The notes below the pieces were generated by a model that saw only the letters and a program-made list of their open reading frames with translations, was not told the DNA's origin and did no database searches. This document shows, in pieces, positions 2,919-25,123 of a stretch of 32,000 bases of DNA. Position 1 is the first letter of the stretch; the number at the start of each line of letters is the position of its first letter. Source of the DNA: an uncultured Bacteroidales bacterium (GTDB lineage Bacteria > Bacteroidota > Bacteroidia > Bacteroidales > WCHB1-69). The translations under genes and the position numbers were made by a program. The DNA lies in contig CALGTS010000016.1 of assembly GCA_937901925.1 (NCBI GenBank), positions 1 to 32,000 of the forward strand, read 5' to 3'.

Positions 2919-3036
2919 ACGAAGCTTGAATGTGGTACGAATTTTTCCAGAGGAAACCCATGAGTTGTTCGCCAAGACCGAGCAGTTCGCAAAACTGAGA
3001 TACGAAGGGTATAAGAAATTAAATGACGGAAAATAA
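2890..3036 (+). other. Out-of-frame conserved C-terminal coding remnant of WYL gene A
   Basis: This frame is open from 2890. Its last 23 codons (2968..3036, FAKTEQFAKLRYEGYKKLNDGK*) match 13477..13545 codon for codon, with 6 synonymous differences including aga/cgt (Arg) and tta/ctc (Leu). It contains no start codon. Confidence 0.55.
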
Positions 3037-3050
3037 AATCATCCGTGTCC

Positions 3051-3093
3051 GTAGGGGCGAATAATTGAGGGGCGAATAATTATTCGCCCCTAC
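3051..3093. repeat. REP-like element: half-site plus perfect palindrome GTAGGGGCGAATAATTATTCGCCCCTAC
   Basis: 'gtaggggcgaataattg' is followed by 'aggggcgaataattattcgcccctac'. The same palindrome recurs at 3570..3597 inside the adjacent Y1-transposase gene. Confidence 0.8.
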
Positions 3094-3157
3094 CCATCCC
3101 CAAACCGGACGTGACCGAAATTCGATCATGCCCGTTTTTTTGTGTCGGAATATTTTG

Positions 3158-3165
3158 TATGTTTG
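3158..3165 (+). promoter_or_regulatory. -7 promoter box (TAtgTTTG) for the RAYT gene
   Basis: Exact TAnnTTTG match 30 nt upstream of the ATG at 3195. It lies inside the longer GTG-started ORF (3111), which argues for the 3195 start. Confidence 0.4.
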
Positions 3166-3194
3166 CAGGGAATGAAAACAATTTTATAAACAAT

Positions 3195-3830
3195 ATGAAA
3201 ACGAAGAGATATCATCGTCGATCCATCCGTCTGAACGGATATGATTACGTCCAAAATGGGAATTATTTCCTGACCATATGTTCACGAAACAGAGAATGTC
3301 TCTTTGGGGATGTTCGCGATGGCAAAATGTATCTGTTAAATTATGGATGGCTGGTGAACGAATGCTGGCAGGAAATCCCGGCACATTTTCCGCAAATTGT
3401 TTTGCATGAATACGTTATCATGCCAAACCACGTGCATGGCATTATCGAAATCAACAACCCGCAATCCACGGGTGCAAATACGGGTATGTGTACGGATACC
3501 GTGAATGTAGGGGCGAATATCGTGGATGTAGGGGCGAATGTCGTGGATGTAGGGGCGAATGTCGTGGATGTAGGGGCGAATAATTATTCGCCCCTACGGA
3601 CCCCGCAATCCCGTCCCCATGGCACATCCCGAACGGTGGGTTCCGTGGTGCGCGGATTCAAAATCGGGGTGACCAAACAAATGGGATTTTCCCCGTGGCA
3701 ACGCAATTATTACGAACACATCATCCGAAATGATGAATCGTATCAAAACATTGTCCAATACATGGCGCAAAACCCGCTAAAATGGAAGGAGGATTATTTC
3801 TATTTTGGAATCAACGGTGCATCAATATGA
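3195..3830 (+). CDS. REP-associated tyrosine (Y1/HUH) transposase, IS200-like (RAYT)
   Basis: 'RSIRLNGYDY...YFLTICSRNRECLFG', the HUH motif 'MPNHVHGII' and the catalytic Tyr region 'WQRNYYEHIIRN' are typical of RAYT/IS200-TnpA-like proteins. REP palindromes are adjacent and internal. Confidence 0.85.
   Translation: MKTKRYHRRSIRLNGYDYVQNGNYFLTICSRNRECLFGDVRDGKMYLLNYGWLVNECWQEIPAHFPQIVLHEYVIMPNHVHGIIEINNPQSTGANTGMCTDTVNVGANIVDVGANVVDVGANVVDVGANNYSPLRTPQSRPHGTSRTVGSVVRGFKIGVTKQMGFSPWQRNYYEHIIRNDESYQNIVQYMAQNPLKWKEDYFYFGINGASI
3507..3597 (+). repeat. In-frame 21-bp tandem repeat (3 units) ending in the 28-bp REP palindrome
   Basis: Units at 3507-3527, 3528-3548 and 3549-3569 (gtaggggcgaat[a/g]tcgtggat), then gtaggggcgaataattattcgcccctac at 3570-3597. 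Together they encode VGANIVD VGANVVD VGANVVD VGANNYSPL between the HUH and Tyr motifs. Confidence 0.95.
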
Positions 3831-3831
3831 A

Positions 3832-3848
3832 TATTTTTGTTATTTTTG
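3832..3848 (+). promoter_or_regulatory. Two adjacent -7 boxes (TAttTTTG at 3832-3839 and 3841-3848)
   Basis: Exact TAnnTTTG matches. The second, 'tatttttgccg', resembles the promoter part of the repeated junction module (4179, 9229, 11811). It may drive RNA copy A. Confidence 0.3.
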
Positions 3849-3920
3849 CCGTCGAAAATATCAAATAGTATTAACGAAAAAACAACAAAAAAAAGAAAAA
3901 GACTAAAAACCAACTAAATA

Positions 3921-4106
3921 CATATTATAGATAGCGTTTGTGGCTATCCTTGAACGTCAAATTTCCACAACGTCCTCGTTGCGAGGGCAAAAACCAATCA
4001 AGGAGAGTTATAAATGCCGTAGTAATACGGCGTGGAATGACTTGTTAGATTGGTGGGGCGTGGAAACCCTGACGTTCAGGCAAGGAATAAGTTCCACGCT
4101 TTTTTT
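3921..4106 (+). ncRNA. Unclassified structured RNA, copy A (5' end uncertain), ending in an intrinsic terminator
   Basis: Highly similar to 13778..13961. Differences fall in loops or are compensatory in helices. Indels break all reading frames between copies. It ends with a GC-rich stem plus T-run. Confidence 0.7.
4058..4106 (+). terminator. Intrinsic terminator of RNA copy A
   Basis: GCGTGGAA (4058-4065) pairs with TTCCACGC (4092-4099) and is followed by T7 (4100-4106). Confidence 0.7.
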
Positions 4107-4155
4107 ATGCAATTCACGAAAAAAAACGATATGAGGCAAAAAAACATTACTAAGA

Positions 4156-4197
4156 CACTTTTTGGCAGGGTGGCGTTCTATTTTTGCCGCGTTGAAA
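4156..4197 (+). repeat. Junction module copy 1 (right hairpin arm plus -7 box TAttTTTG at 4179-4186)
   Basis: 42 nt identical to 9206-9247 ('cactttttggcagggtggcgttctatttttgccgcgttgaaa'). It precedes the ATGAAAAAA start at 4228. Confidence 0.85.
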
Positions 4198-4227
4198 CTG
4201 AAATAATAACCACTTAAAATAGGTCGT

Positions 4228-8097: not shown

Positions 8098-8127
8098 CAT
8101 AAAAATTCAATAAATATGGGAGGCAGC

Positions 8128-8154
8128 CGAAAATCCCTCAAAGAGTAGGCGAAA
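8128..8154 (+). repeat. Cassette leader repeat, copy 1
   Basis: 'cgaaaatccctcaaagagtaggcgaaa' here versus 'cgaaaatccctcaatgagcaggcaaaa' at 9746-9772. Each lies a few tens of nt upstream of a low-GC nuclease gene. Confidence 0.55.
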
Positions 8155-8172
8155 GAATAAAAATCTATTATT

Positions 8173-9168
8173 ATGACGAATAATAAATCAACCCAAAGTA
8201 ACACACCGAGTAAATTTTTTAAACTACCATACAATATGGATGGTAACAGCTGTACAACACTTTTTAAGCACGGGTATTTCAATTTCCCTATAAAAGAATA
8301 TAATGGATTGGGACGAAACAAAGAACATTGTCTTGGCAGTTATACATTATTCGTTGCAAAGGATGTAAAGGAAAAGTATGCGAAAGACGGCTTCATAAGC
8401 GAAATACTTAACATGATTGATAATGACAAGGTTCAAATAAGAATATTTACTTCTCCTTACAAAAGGGGAGGCAAGAAAGGAGAGGTCGTTCGTTGTGCTA
8501 TCGATTATATCTTTTTGCAACAAATCAAAAAACTGTTTGTCAGTACTCTGGCTTATCTATATGCAAAAAAAGATGTTCCAGAAATGGAATCCATGGAGTT
8601 TACTTTCGACTATTCGGACTTGGAAGCCAGAACAGTCTCTTTGTCTTCTTTGAATTTATATACACCATTGGACAACCCTTTTTTTGAGTATGCGAGAAAT
8701 TATGCCTCTTTCCTTTCTTTGGAAGACATCAGTTCTGGAAAACTGAAAACACAAGATGACTCTGAAAGAAACGATTTCTACAAACCCGAACTACTGTCAC
8801 CGTGGAAAACGGCGGATAACATTGACAAAGATAAATCTTATTTATTAGATATTCCAGGAATATATATGCTGTATAATTCTAACAACAACAATTTCTATAT
8901 CGGCAAATCCAAAAACCTTTTGCAACGCATCAAGAAACATTATGATGACGAAAACGATCCGTCATACGGGTTCACACATTACCGCTACAGTATAATCCAA
9001 AGCGAATATTTTGATGTTTTAGACTTGATTGAGAACGCTGCCATACATGATGTAGCATGGATTTTGAATATGCCAGAATCAAAAAGATATAAAAAAGCGC
9101 TTTCTACTTTTGCTGATATAAACAACTGCATAATGACAAATAAGATAGAACGTCAAACAAAGAAATAA
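8173..9168 (+). CDS. GIY-YIG nuclease-domain protein (C-terminal) with an uncharacterised N-terminal region
   Basis: 'IPGIYMLYNSNNNNFYIGKSKNLLQRIKKHY' gives GIY-x10-YIG plus the conserved Arg, with a downstream 'LIENAAIHD' Glu. Visibly low-GC ORF. Confidence 0.75.
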   Translation: MTNNKSTQSNTPSKFFKLPYNMDGNSCTTLFKHGYFNFPIKEYNGLGRNKEHCLGSYTLFVAKDVKEKYAKDGFISEILNMIDNDKVQIRIFTSPYKRGGKKGEVVRCAIDYIFLQQIKKLFVSTLAYLYAKKDVPEMESMEFTFDYSDLEARTVSLSSLNLYTPLDNPFFEYARNYASFLSLEDISSGKLKTQDDSERNDFYKPELLSPWKTADNIDKDKSYLLDIPGIYMLYNSNNNNFYIGKSKNLLQRIKKHYDDENDPSYGFTHYRYSIIQSEYFDVLDLIENAAIHDVAWILNMPESKRYKKALSTFADINNCIMTNKIERQTKK

Positions 9169-9247
9169 TAATCGTCAGTTTTCCACACCCCACTCGCCAC
9201 CCTGCCACTTTTTGGCAGGGTGGCGTTCTATTTTTGCCGCGTTGAAA
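9165..9247 (+). repeat. Junction module copy 2: conserved tail, perfect 12-bp GC-rich hairpin and -7 promoter box
   Basis: The tail 'ataataatcgtcagttttccacacc' (9165-9189) is identical to 11746-11770. The hairpin is GCCACCCTGCCA-ctttt-TGGCAGGGTGGC (9196-9224). TAttTTTG lies at 9229-9236. The module probably acts as a terminator followed by a promoter. Confidence 0.85.
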
Positions 9248-9284
9248 TTGAGAGAATATTTTATAACCCTTAAATTCCAAAAAA

Positions 9285-9683: not shown

Positions 9684-9745
9684 TCATATTTTATGCACTG
9701 AAACGACAATCCAATAATGCGGATTCCGCAAACATGGACGAATAG

Positions 9746-9772
9746 CGAAAATCCCTCAATGAGCAGGCAAAA
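9746..9772 (+). repeat. Cassette leader repeat, copy 2
   Basis: See 8128-8154. A 14-nt identical core 'cgaaaatccctcaa' is followed by further matches. Confidence 0.55.
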
Positions 9773-11745: not shown

Positions 11746-11830
11746 ATAATAATCGTCAGTTTTCCACACCTTACTCCGCCACCCAGCCGCTTTTTGGCAG
11801 GGTGGCGTCCTATTTTTGCCGCATCAAAAT
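11746..11830 (+). repeat. Junction module copy 3 (tail, imperfect hairpin, -7 box TAttTTTG at 11811-11818)
   Basis: The tail is identical to 9165-9189. The hairpin at 11778-11806 has two mismatches in the left arm. It precedes the ATGAAAAAG start at 11864. Confidence 0.85.
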
Positions 11831-11863
11831 AAAACCTTTTCATCAACAATTAAAATTCAAGAC

Positions 11864-12583: not shown

Positions 12584-13552
12584 ATGGATAAGCTCAAGAA
12601 GTGCATCTGGATTGTCAACACGGTAGCGGCAGCTGGTGATGCGGGCATCACATTGACCGAACTCAACCGCAAGTGGACCGCCGACCCCGAGAAAGACCCT
12701 ATCCCATATCGCACTTTCCTCCGACTGCGGGACTACATTGCCAACGTTTTCGGCATTGACATCGATTGCGACAAGAGGTATAACGCCTACTATATCCCTT
12801 ATCGCGACGAGTTGTACGATGACAGACTGAAAATGTGGCTGCTCAACAGTTTCGCTATGCACAGTCGGCTGTCGGGCAATCTGGAACTTCGACGACGGGT
12901 GCGCTTTGAGGAAATTCCGGGTGGCAACCGATGGTTGGATCCTATCATGGAAGCTATGCAACAATTCAGCAAGATTTCATTCCTCTACCAAAAGGAGTAT
13001 GAAACAGAAAAAACTTCATACCCGAACTGTGCACCTTTGGCATTGAAACTCTTTAAGCAGCGGTGGTATCTGATAGCGGACAAGGGCGTGGGTGAAATAC
13101 GCTTTTTCGCCCTTGACCGCATAGCGGAAGTGAAATCCCTTGATGAGAAATTCCAGATACCCTCGGATTTCGATCTGGACGATCTCTTCCAGGATGCCTT
13201 TGGAATGTATGTGAATCCCGAAATCGCCACCGAACGTATTGTGGTAAAGGCAGACAGAGACCAAAGCCTCTACTTGATGAGTTTGCCGTTACACCACAGC
13301 CAGCAAATCATTGAAACAACGGATGATTACTCGATTTTCTCTTGGCGACTGAAACCTACATACGATTTCATCCAACAACTACTCACAATGAATCTACATA
13401 TTGAGGTTTTAGAGCCGTTGTCGTTGCGAACCAAGATTGCCGAATTACTGAAAAGTATGGCCAAGAAACATAACTCTTCGCCAACACCTCACAGTTCGCG
13501 AAAGCTCGTTACAAAGGCTACAAAAAACTCAATGAAGGAAAATAAAAATTGA
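12584..13552 (+). CDS. WYL-domain transcriptional regulator (paralog B), tail apparently frameshifted
   Basis: 'FKQRWYLIADKG...FFALDRI' WYL signature and 'LPLHHSQ' shared with paralog A. The last ~25 codons are out of frame relative to the conserved tail at 13477-13545. Confidence 0.8.
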   Translation: MDKLKKCIWIVNTVAAAGDAGITLTELNRKWTADPEKDPIPYRTFLRLRDYIANVFGIDIDCDKRYNAYYIPYRDELYDDRLKMWLLNSFAMHSRLSGNLELRRRVRFEEIPGGNRWLDPIMEAMQQFSKISFLYQKEYETEKTSYPNCAPLALKLFKQRWYLIADKGVGEIRFFALDRIAEVKSLDEKFQIPSDFDLDDLFQDAFGMYVNPEIATERIVVKADRDQSLYLMSLPLHHSQQIIETTDDYSIFSWRLKPTYDFIQQLLTMNLHIEVLEPLSLRTKIAELLKSMAKKHNSSPTPHSSRKLVTKATKNSMKENKN

Positions 13553-13565
13553 GTAAATAGATTTC

Positions 13566-13592
13566 GAGGAGGTGATTTCCTCCTCTTTTTTT
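13566..13592 (+). terminator. Intrinsic terminator after WYL gene B
   Basis: GAGGAGG-tgattt-CCTCCTC followed by T7. Confidence 0.7.
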
Positions 13593-13624: not shown

Positions 13625-13632
13625 TATTTTTG
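13625..13632 (+). promoter_or_regulatory. -7 promoter box (TAttTTTG) upstream of RNA copy B
   Basis: Exact TAnnTTTG match. It lies about 145 nt upstream of the start of the conserved RNA block, so the RNA 5' end is uncertain. Confidence 0.3.
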
Positions 13633-13777
13633 CAATCTGTAACAGATTCATTGTTACATAGAAAAAACGAATGGATAGGCTTTGCCCGACAACTACGTTC
13701 CGCTTTGCCTACCATCGAAGAGATAGAAAATAATTTAAACAAAAATAATATCGATTGAGATAAGAAACTAACATATA

Positions 13778-13961
13778 CATATTATATTAGATAGCGTTTG
13801 TGGCTATCCTTGAAGTCCAATTTCCACATCGTCCTCGAAAGAGGACACAACTCATCAAGGATTAGTTATGAATGCCGTAGTATCACGGCGTGGAATAACT
13901 TGTTAGATGAGTGGGCGTGGAAACCCGGACTTCAAGCAAGGAATAAATTCCACGTTTTTTT
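13778..13961 (+). ncRNA. Unclassified structured RNA, copy B, in the leader position of an XRE gene
   Basis: Paralog of 3921-4106. The terminator is GCGTGGAA (13915-13922) paired with TTCCACG (13948-13954) plus T7 (13955-13961). The T-run abuts the ATG at 13962. Confidence 0.7.
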
Positions 13962-14177
13962 ATGACAGGAATCAACGACATACACATTGGCAGACGCATC
14001 AAAGCGAAATTAAGAGAGCAAGGGCGCACCTCCGTCTGGTTGGCCACACAGATTCCTTGTTCCCCAAATCATCTGTACAAGGTGTATGACAAGTCCTCCA
14101 TCAACACCGACCTATTGAAGCGTATCTCCCTGATTTTGGATTATAATTTCTTTGAGGATTTTATCCAAAATGGATAG
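13962..14177 (+). CDS. XRE-family helix-turn-helix protein (71 aa)
   Basis: 'IGRRIKAKLREQGRTSVWLATQIPCSPNHLYKVYDKSSINTDLLKRIS' fits the HTH_XRE pattern. Confidence 0.7.
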   Translation: MTGINDIHIGRRIKAKLREQGRTSVWLATQIPCSPNHLYKVYDKSSINTDLLKRISLILDYNFFEDFIQNG

Positions 14178-24516: not shown

Positions 24517-24541
24517 ATGTCATTTAGAAATTATCTATATA

Positions 24542-25123
24542 TTAGTGATTTCCACATCCTTCATGATTATGACCTTGGCAACCTTCGTGGTTATGTCCTT
24601 GGCAACCTTCATGTTTCTCACCTTGGCAACCTTCATGTTTTGGAGCGTGTTTCTTTTGGTGTTCTAAGACATTGTCAATTAATGCTTTTTGCTCTTCGAT
24701 AGCTAAATTTTCGAAGTTATTCCATTTCTCTTTCATTTCAGCATGTTTTTGAGCACAATCTTTCTCACCTTCACACTTATTTTGGCAACCTTCATGTTTC
24801 TCACCTTGGCAACCTTCATGTTTCTCACCTTGACAACCTTCATGCTTTTCACCTTCACATTTTGACATTTTTTCATCAAGAAAAGCTTTCATAGCTGCAA
24901 CAAGGTCAGCTTGTGCTTGAGCTTCAAGAGTTTCAAATTGTTTCCATTGCGCAAACATTGCTTTTTGTTCTTCTGTCAAACCACAGCATCCTTTACCTTC
25001 GTGATTGTGTTGACAATCTTCGTGAGTTGTTGCTGCTTCATCTACAGGAGCTTCAACTTGTTTGGTATTACAAGAAACAAAAAGGAGACAGAATGCCGCC
25101 ATTACTAAAAATAGTTTTTTCAT
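24542..25123 (-). CDS. His/Cys-rich repeat lipoprotein (putative metal-binding)
   Basis: Lipobox 'LLFVSC'. There are three metal-ligand-rich blocks, two of which contain (G)EKHEGCQ octapeptide repeats. The protein ends in 'GHNHEGCQGHNHEGCGNH'. Confidence 0.8.
   Translation of the reverse strand: MKKLFLVMAAFCLLFVSCNTKQVEAPVDEAATTHEDCQHNHEGKGCCGLTEEQKAMFAQWKQFETLEAQAQADLVAAMKAFLDEKMSKCEGEKHEGCQGEKHEGCQGEKHEGCQNKCEGEKDCAQKHAEMKEKWNNFENLAIEEQKALIDNVLEHQKKHAPKHEGCQGEKHEGCQGHNHEGCQGHNHEGCGNH
24551..24646 (-). repeat. 24-bp coding tandem repeat, array 1 (4 units)
   Basis: Units at 24551-24574, 24575-24598, 24599-24622 and 24623-24646 (ttggcaaccttc[a/g]tg...). Confidence 0.9.
24782..24853 (-). repeat. 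24-bp coding tandem repeat, array 2 (3 units)
   Basis: Units at 24782-24805 and 24806-24829 are identical. The unit at 24830-24853 differs at a few positions. Confidence 0.9.

Follow-up and report, generated by a model that had tools for sequence, protein, structure and literature searches.

Introduction

Two closely similar non-coding segments are found in a 32,000-nucleotide stretch of DNA from an uncultured Bacteroidales bacterium (the window, by which we mean this whole stretch). What are these segments, does the same element occur in other genomes, and how could it act on the gene that follows it? A preliminary description, made from the letters of the window, had presented them as two copies of a structured RNA that could not be assigned to a known family. 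Bacteroidales are a dominant group in gut and rumen communities, and to our knowledge few regulatory RNAs are known from them. In the present study, we followed up this description by computational analysis of the fold, the family and the genomic surroundings of the element, and we weighed the roles that it might have.

Results

Two copies in the window

Both copies of the element, which is about 190 nt long, lie on the + strand, copy A at 3921-4106 and copy B at 13778-13961, as the preliminary description had placed them. They share 85% mean identity over about 190 nt of alignment, and the likeness breaks off abruptly at either end. No third copy in the window was returned by a repeat search or by a covariance-model search, and the number of chance matches expected in the window for the three-box pattern used below is zero. 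The minimum free energy (MFE) was -70.4 kcal/mol for copy A (mean of dinucleotide shuffles -44.7, z -6.2) and -70.0 kcal/mol for copy B (shuffle mean -39.9, z -7.7), and none of 200 shuffles folded as well as either copy. The claim that the copies have no reading frame in common was also upheld: indels between them break it, and 157 of 181 distinct family members have stops in each of the three + frames. The element is non-coding rather than protein-coding, and both repeats are genuine copies of a large structured RNA.

In copy A, the fold opens with the hairpin P0 (GAUAGC-N7-GCUAUC, 3930-3948), followed by the 5' strand of the long-range helix P1 (3949-3959), whose 3' strand is at 4070-4080, and by the C1 box UUUCCAC (3962-3968), which is the 5' strand of P2 and pairs with 4060-4066. 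Then come the P3 hairpin (3972-3988) and the P4-P5-P6 arm (3993-4054), in which P4 joins 3993-3999 to 4048-4054, P5 joins 4005-4011 to 4037-4043 and P6 joins 4014-4021 to 4026-4033; the arm also contains an internal UCAAGGA (3998-4004) and the G1 box GGCGUGGAAU (4029-4038). The G2 box GGCGUGGAAACC is at 4057-4068; its positions 4060-4066 are the 3' strand of P2, and 4057-4065 could alternatively serve as the 5' strand of a putative terminator stem, here called T. The C2 box UUCCACGC (4092-4099), which is the 3' strand of this putative intrinsic terminator, is followed by a U7 tract (4100-4106), and the ATG at 4107, directly after the U7, opens an ORF of just 36 codons. P0, P1, P3 and the P4-P5-P6 arm are present in the MFE structure and show covariation, while P2 is present in the MFE structure and occurs in compensated variants. 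All these features are on the + strand.

Copy B is built in the same way on the same strand, and its RNA (13790-13961) scores 174.7 bits with the covariance model. Its helices are P0 (13790-13795 with 13803-13808), P1 (13809-13818 with 13927-13936), C1/P2 (13821-13827 with 13917-13923), P3 (13831-13846), P4 (13850-13856 with 13906-13912), P5 (13864-13869 with 13895-13900) and P6 (13872-13878 with 13885-13891), and its boxes are G1 (13887-13896), G2 (13914-13925) and C2 (13948-13955), with the U tract at 13955-13961. The ATG of a 71-aa XRE/Cro-C1-type HTH gene (13962-14177, +) abuts this U tract.

The preliminary description had given correct coordinates for P3 and P1 in both copies, for a second hairpin (4016-4031 and 13874-13889) and for four TTCCAC/GTGGAA boxes. 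We could also confirm the two differences between the copies in the long-range helix, a C:G pair absent from both strands and C:G in place of a terminal A:U. P4, P5 and the 5' hairpin P0 had been omitted from it; in the alignment of the copies, P4 holds two further compensated pairs.

A conserved fold with compensatory changes

We aligned 93 sequences with MAFFT and examined them by RNAalifold, by a column-pair scan and by pair counting, and all three led to one and the same nested fold. It consists of the P0 hairpin, the long-range P1 of 10-11 bp, P2 (UUUCCAC:GUGGAAA) and a three-way junction with P3 and the P4-P5-P6 arm. A covariance model was built from this nested fold. In the model-based alignment of 83 hits, which is fitted to the model and hence leans towards structure, 92.4% of cells are paired, compared with 35-42% when the partners are slid. 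In the same alignment, double changes occur in 32 of 52 pairs, and the covariation score (0.433; shuffles 0.167) was reached by none of 500 shuffles. The unfitted MAFFT alignment agrees, with 86.8% of cells paired against about 40% after sliding.

The closing pair of P0 covaries (G:C 37, A:U 40), and in 23 sequences U.G stands in place of an internal U:A pair, a substitution that fits a hairpin formed by RNA better than a palindrome in DNA. Double compensatory changes were seen in 7 of 10 pairs of P1 (one pair is AU in 34, CG in 28, UA in 11 and GC in 7 sequences), in all 7 pairs of P3 and in 7 of 7 pairs of P4, where 97.9% of cells are paired; for P6, the proportion is 97.1%. One clade has an extra small hairpin 5' of P0. 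In the paired columns, G.U outnumbers A.C by 730 to 249, and this asymmetry, together with the stops in all three frames, points to an RNA transcribed from the + strand. Overall, the helices are kept by compensatory substitutions beyond the level of the controls, as expected of a structured non-coding RNA, and the structured + strand RNA of the preliminary description is now borne out by the family as a whole.

These data also bear on the idea that the element works at the DNA level, as a DnaA-box-like cluster (TTTCCACA), as an operator palindrome or as folded single-stranded DNA such as an integron attC site or a single-strand origin. The boxes do resemble DnaA boxes, chance matches of the pattern in other phyla look like DnaA-box arrays, and the element is located between co-oriented, cassette-like accessory genes. 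However, long-range compensation in P1, P3 and P4 would be senseless for protein binding to double-stranded DNA, and TTACCAC weakens the match to a DnaA box, yet it is compensated by its RNA partner. Changes in C1 are matched in G2 about 90 nt away, the excess of G.U over A.C marks one transcribed strand, a U-tract follows a G+C-rich stem, and the element was not found in plasmid and phage collections. We therefore consider a role at the DNA level extremely improbable, and the DnaA-box and attC readings were rejected because the long-range compensation and the asymmetry between the strands are at odds with them.

P2, the C and G boxes and the 3' stem

Since the first search pattern fixed the boxes, box invariance in that set is uninformative, and P2 has to be judged from copies that were found without box constraint. 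The second copy of locus L080 carries UUACCAC with GUGGUAA. Four RNAs reached via an XRE neighbour include one with UUACCAC:GUGGUAA, one with AUUCCAC:GUGGAAU and two with the canonical pair, and one apparent recombinant has broken helices and a lower score. The compensated forms in these unconstrained copies establish P2 as a real helix and the second G box as the partner of the 5' C box; P2 is genuine and exists in three compensated forms. The UUACCAC/GUGGUAA version is common, being present in at least 120 loci. We discarded a count of 'independent' P2 flips on the tree as a statistic, because both search patterns forced the compensated state, and just the six copies found without box constraints are counted here.

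Mutually exclusive pairings among the boxes, as in a conformational switch, had also been proposed. The boxes are indeed capable of them, but the partner of the 5' UUUCCAC is the second GUGGAAA, in P2, and not the first, GUGGAAU. As a conserved alternative helix C1:G1 was rejected, since variants of C1 are compensated in G2 and not in G1; it was seen solely as a transient fold in prefix folding.

The 3' box UUCCACGC is constant in all versions of P2. Its rare variants (UUCCGCGC, UUCUACGC and UUCCAUGC) are transitions that keep wobble pairing with a GGCGUGG box. Conservation extends to the U-tract and the CCACGC core. C2 could pair with either G box, its complementarity to the first being at least as good as that to the second; a match of its 5' extension to the tail of G1 was seen in 128 of 172 sequences, and to G2 in 40 of 181. 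The stem GGCGUGGAA/UUCCACGCU with U7 is present and conserved. Its loop of about 26 nt explains why a simple terminator scanner does not call it, and because the stem core is invariant, it has no support from covariation.

P2 and stem T (G2:C2) share GUGG, with duplex energies of -7.3 and -13.8 kcal/mol, respectively, and P2 (C1:G2) is mutually exclusive with the terminator stem. The nested MFE structure has P2 and lacks the terminator stem in 75 of 77 members, so that termination may be weak or may need a pseudoknot. When stem T is forced in a pseudoknot-free fold, the loss of P1 entails a mean cost of 7.8 kcal/mol. In prefix folding, the transient C1:G1 is followed by P4-P6, P2 and P1, all before C2 is made. 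A pseudoknotted terminator, in which P1 would be kept while the stem forms, is possible, being sterically and energetically plausible, and it would render both states roughly iso-energetic. An RGG/CCY mini-hairpin around G2 was tried and rejected; its correlation is near-perfect, yet it goes back to about three events on the tree, and it is sterically incompatible with P2.

Distribution and novelty of the family

Homologues were searched for in two scans. The first used the three-box pattern on one genome per species and matched at least 119 loci, with about 91 true homologues among the matches listed; nearly all of them belong to metagenome-assembled genomes (MAGs) of Bacteroidales from rumen, gut and termites. 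The second scan used the variant box pair UUACCAC/GUGGUAA on metagenomes and added at least 120 more loci. Both scans together gave more than 200 homologues, almost all from Bacteroidales MAGs among the matches listed. Named groups with the element are Prevotellaceae, Tannerellaceae, Azobacteroides, Lentimicrobiaceae and Marinilabiliaceae. Several MAGs have two to four copies, and MAG RGIG3192 has at least four. Two copies are defective. In L264:1005-1206, the 5' and 3' halves belong to different RNA types and P1, P2 and P4 are broken; this copy may have arisen by recombination between paralogues or as an assembly chimera. In L080:5521-5708, the similarity ends after the G2 box.

The statement that the element is not assignable to a known family also held when covariance models were used. 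Neither copy A nor copy B has a match in Rfam 15 at the gathering score, with noise only at E<=10, and among 15 diverse family loci no Rfam model matched the element, the sole matches being to DUF805 elsewhere in the loci. The phage, plasmid and IMG/VR collections contained no true copy (the single IMG/VR match is due to chance), and the literature, searched for the box sequences and for accounts of similar elements, yielded nothing relevant. Furthermore, 200 of the 408 supplementary files of the candidate catalogue of Fremin and Bhatt contained no match. The RNA family is apparently uncatalogued.

DUF805 and DUF805b (RF03081 and RF02914) resemble the element in being candidate cis-regulatory motifs that are specific to Bacteroidales and occur in the same islands; they differ in that they are unrelated and much smaller hairpin motifs of 35-68 nt. 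In the window, Rfam places DUF805b at 8117-8151 (+, 39.9 bits), just upstream of the GIY-YIG ORF 8173-9168, and a second DUF805b-like copy (72% similar) is at 9723-9772. In L143 (10032-10099) and L085 (1054-1124), a DUF805 follows the family member at a distance of 120-180 nt on its downstream side, and a loose DUF805 pattern was seen in about 8 of 228 loci when the first 600 nt downstream were searched, roughly a tenfold excess over background. The motif can be read in frame in L085, L078 and L074, where it gives the following ORF its N-terminus, MEQRPFQKRGVSENP.

Promoters and upstream neighbours

TAnnTTTG boxes, the canonical -7 boxes of Bacteroidetes, are enriched 60-105 nt 5' of P0, with about 50 matches in 88 sequences, compared with about 14 in the 90 nt farther upstream. 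In copy A, a candidate Bacteroidetes sigma-A -7 box (TATTTTTG), read from the sequence and pointing to a putative transcription start, is at 3841-3848 (+), with a second overlapping match at 3832-3839 (+) and an A-rich leader on its 3' side (about 3856-3929, +). In copy B, a candidate -7 box of the same sequence TATTTTTG, with the same presumed role, is at 13625-13632 (+), right after the terminator of the WYL gene (13566-13585). The transcript probably starts 50-150 nt upstream of 3921 and 13778, and would then be longer at its 5' end than the interval first noted. Immediately 3' of the candidate promoter of copy B there is a perfect inverted repeat, TGTAACA-N7-TGTTACA (13638-13658), which is a possible operator for the XRE or the WYL protein.

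The link with WYL genes noticed in the window was found again, and only in close relatives of the window. WYL was accordingly rejected as a family-wide partner, its genes being confined as neighbours to this species and those relatives. The two WYL proteins of the window are 31% identical, against 85% for the RNAs. A stretch of 71 nt just beyond the first WYL gene's stop (2968-3038) is 76% similar in DNA sequence to the 3' end of the second WYL gene (13477-13547); this may reflect a frameshift or what is left of the end of another WYL gene. Between the WYL gene and copy A, the palindrome GGGGCGAATAATTATTCGCCCC occurs twice, with 21-nt tandem repeats, at 3068-3100 and 3493-3604, around and inside the ORF 3111-3830. 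This ORF matches the REP-associated tyrosine transposase NF047646 at 1.6e-14, below the cut-off, and the whole looks like a REP/RayT-type insertion. In 12 loci of the family, an MNT-HEPN pair ends about 30 nt upstream of the element.

Genes downstream of the element

The nearest downstream ORF is co-oriented with the element in 77 of 85 loci (91%) and the nearest upstream ORF in 64 of 86, so that a co-oriented gene lies directly downstream as a rule. About 38 of 93 genome hits have a 69-116 aa XRE-type ORF whose start codon follows the U-tract by 0-2 nt, and a stricter count that accepted ATG only gave an ORF start at the U-tract in 55 of 196; a start this close leaves no room for a promoter of its own. 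The 71-aa XRE protein of the window matches a 69-aa family member with an E value of 9e-19, this member matches Pfam HTH_3 at 4e-7, and an NCBI entry with 74% identity to the window protein is named XRE family regulator. The association with XRE genes proposed from the window is thus real, but it is limited to about 30-40% of the members. Some XRE homologues have no RNA upstream; one of them, in L246-L255 (69% identical), stands upstream of an 835-aa LRR_5/T9SS protein without a copy of the RNA, which shows that the XRE regulator and the RNA are separable. In public annotations, the 71-aa XRE ORF is often given as 89-125 aa, its start being placed farther upstream so that it runs through the RNA element (L266:966-1159 against gene 992-1369; proteins P0002, P0007, P0012, P0017 and others), and such an extended ORF is likely a misannotation.

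The other downstream genes are diverse, with ECF-type sigma/anti-sigma pairs, lipoproteins, TerD, GIY-YIG, Mrr_N, DUF3791 and YafQ, as well as surface proteins, which are LRR_5/Por_Secre_tail proteins of 835-2082 aa elsewhere and a 1289-aa Fib_succ_major protein in the window. In a Pfam census of 147 downstream ORFs, no family occurred in more than three, and most ORFs had no domain at all. A metabolite riboswitch is disfavoured because these genes have no common function and the 147 ORFs show no shared metabolic or transport theme. A retron or other RT-associated ncRNA was rejected, as the neighbour clusters and the Pfam matches include no RT family.

Copy A has a separate candidate promoter downstream at 4156-4208 and no abutting gene, and some other members are similar or have no nearby ORF. 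The promoter-like sequence of 53 nt, with a TATTTTTG -7 box, recurs in the window at 9206-9258 and 11788-11840 (75-94% identical), and its three copies precede the 1289-aa surface protein, an Mrr_N ORF and an LRR_5 ORF. A 31-nt repeat with TTTTCCACAC precedes two of the three (9165-9195 and 11746-11776). In another part of the window, 24-nt tandem repeats (24524-24879) lie inside a lipoprotein-like ORF on the - strand (24542-25123), which is rich in His, Cys, Gly and Lys (HEGKGCCG...) and looks like a metal-binding repeat protein.

Members such as copy A bring in the main rival explanation, that the element is a stand-alone multicopy trans-acting sRNA, always ended at the U-tract, whose exposed G1 loop or 3' tail would pair with other RNAs; its targets might include the leaders of paralogous copies, and any read-through would be incidental. 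Several copies per genome, as in the window and in RGIG3192, would be in keeping with such an sRNA, as would boxes that are invariant and complementary between copies and candidate promoters of its own upstream. The same holds for the separate promoter-like sequence behind copy A, which has no abutting gene, and for the many members with no ORF beside the U-tract. Against it stand the start codon that is tight on the U-tract in about one third of the members, with no space for a promoter, the co-oriented downstream ORFs in 91% of loci, and the lack of a local terminator hairpin, as the only stem at the U-tract must break a helix that covariation supports. Multicopy sRNAs, FopS and GibS, have been described in Bacteroides; FopS has 65-70 nt with a single-stranded seed and a terminator, and it targets susC mRNAs (PMC11697453). 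They are like the present element in being multicopy Bacteroidales non-coding families that end in intrinsic terminators, and identity with them was rejected on account of their length of 65-70 nt and the absence of any sequence or structural similarity. We hold the sRNA reading to be tentative and on the whole rather unlikely, and it is a serious one especially for members like copy A.

The large genes and gene arrays behind the element point to a further possibility, namely a recruitment or loading site for protein-dependent processive antitermination, for example by a specialised NusG paralogue, which would let this terminator and later ones in long accessory or surface-protein operons be read through. 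Known leaders of this kind are those of specialised NusG paralogues (RfaH/ops-JUMPstart, Bacteroides UpxY, LoaP), and the RNAs put and EAR also direct processive antitermination. Like these, the element heads long co-directional arrays of horizontally variable surface-structure genes, with a putative terminator to be read through; every gene of the window between 108 and 23858 is encoded on the + strand, very large surface proteins are encoded downstream, and the variety of the downstream genes fits a generic signal over a metabolite-specific one. It differs from them in having no homology and no adjacent NusG-like gene, none having appeared in the neighbourhood clustering, and the known loading sites are short hairpins or other folds, much smaller than the element. 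On balance, we regard this explanation as improbable.

Discussion

We propose that the element is the structured core of a cis-acting 5' leader, which would serve as a conditional intrinsic terminator (attenuator- or riboswitch-like) of the next gene; on the sequences at hand, we hold this with about even confidence. Such a leader would probably gate translation initiation of the following gene too. It is favoured by the tight start codon, by the co-oriented downstream genes and by the competition of P2 with the only stem at the U-tract. Transcription would start at a sigma-A type promoter 50-150 nt upstream, and the nascent RNA would fold into P0 and the three-way-junction domain closed by P1/P2, the fold that covariation demonstrates. 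As judged from sequence and energetics, UUCCACGC with the U-tract could then pair with the GGCGUGG of G2, breaking P2, or alternatively with G1, breaking the base of P6, and either stem against the U-tract would cause termination just before the start codon. A stabilised P1/P2 junction would instead leave the tail single-stranded and allow read-through into the XRE or other gene. The signal could come from a ligand, from a protein (a specialised antiterminator, for instance) or from a second RNA; the diversity of the downstream genes fits better with a generic signal, for which a protein antiterminator, an RNA or some global cue would be candidates.

In terminator/antiterminator riboswitches, for example the ON-type adenine riboswitch of pbuE, the 3' strand of the closing helix of the sensor overlaps the 5' strand of the terminator. 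The element is similar in having a conserved multi-helix domain, a closing helix whose 3' strand overlaps the 5' strand of the putative terminator, and a co-oriented gene directly downstream. It differs from them in having no Rfam match at all and incoherent downstream functions, from which no ligand can be deduced, in its two near-identical G boxes and two C boxes with two possible terminator partners, and in its unusually long closing helices (P1 and P2 with about 18 bp).

A bolder version of the conditional terminator, which we think unlikely, is a new large class of regulatory RNA that would gate variable accessory and surface cassettes by a swap of boxes, in which the terminated RNAs might act in trans on paralogous leaders. 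Pairing of C1 with G2, with G1 held in P6, would alternate with pairing of C2 to G1 or G2, and the often-flipped pair of P2 (U:A, A:U) would set which copies interact. A comparable known system is the immunity of phage P4, which depends on the CI RNA or c4 antisense RNA, the c4 family being in Rfam. Here too, short complementary boxes are repeated in one leader and would lead to premature termination before regulator genes, and a processed or terminated RNA could act on other copies. Unlike c4, the element has no match to the Rfam c4 family, is not in the phage collections, is much larger, contains a three-way junction and gives no sign of processing.

In conclusion, a familiar terminator/antiterminator logic would operate within a new and unusually elaborate RNA. 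The family is a very well supported and multicopy RNA fold of about 190 nt, with hundreds of members and without an Rfam entry. The covariance model and the alignments would enable its annotation, and would correct the public XRE ORF calls that run into the RNA. The element stands before XRE regulators, ECF sigma factors, huge T9SS/BspA-type surface proteins and toxin-antitoxin or defence-type genes. Should it prove to be a conditional terminator, it would add a new orphan sensor RNA and would provide a direct handle on the switching of variable surface and accessory genes in Bacteroidales.
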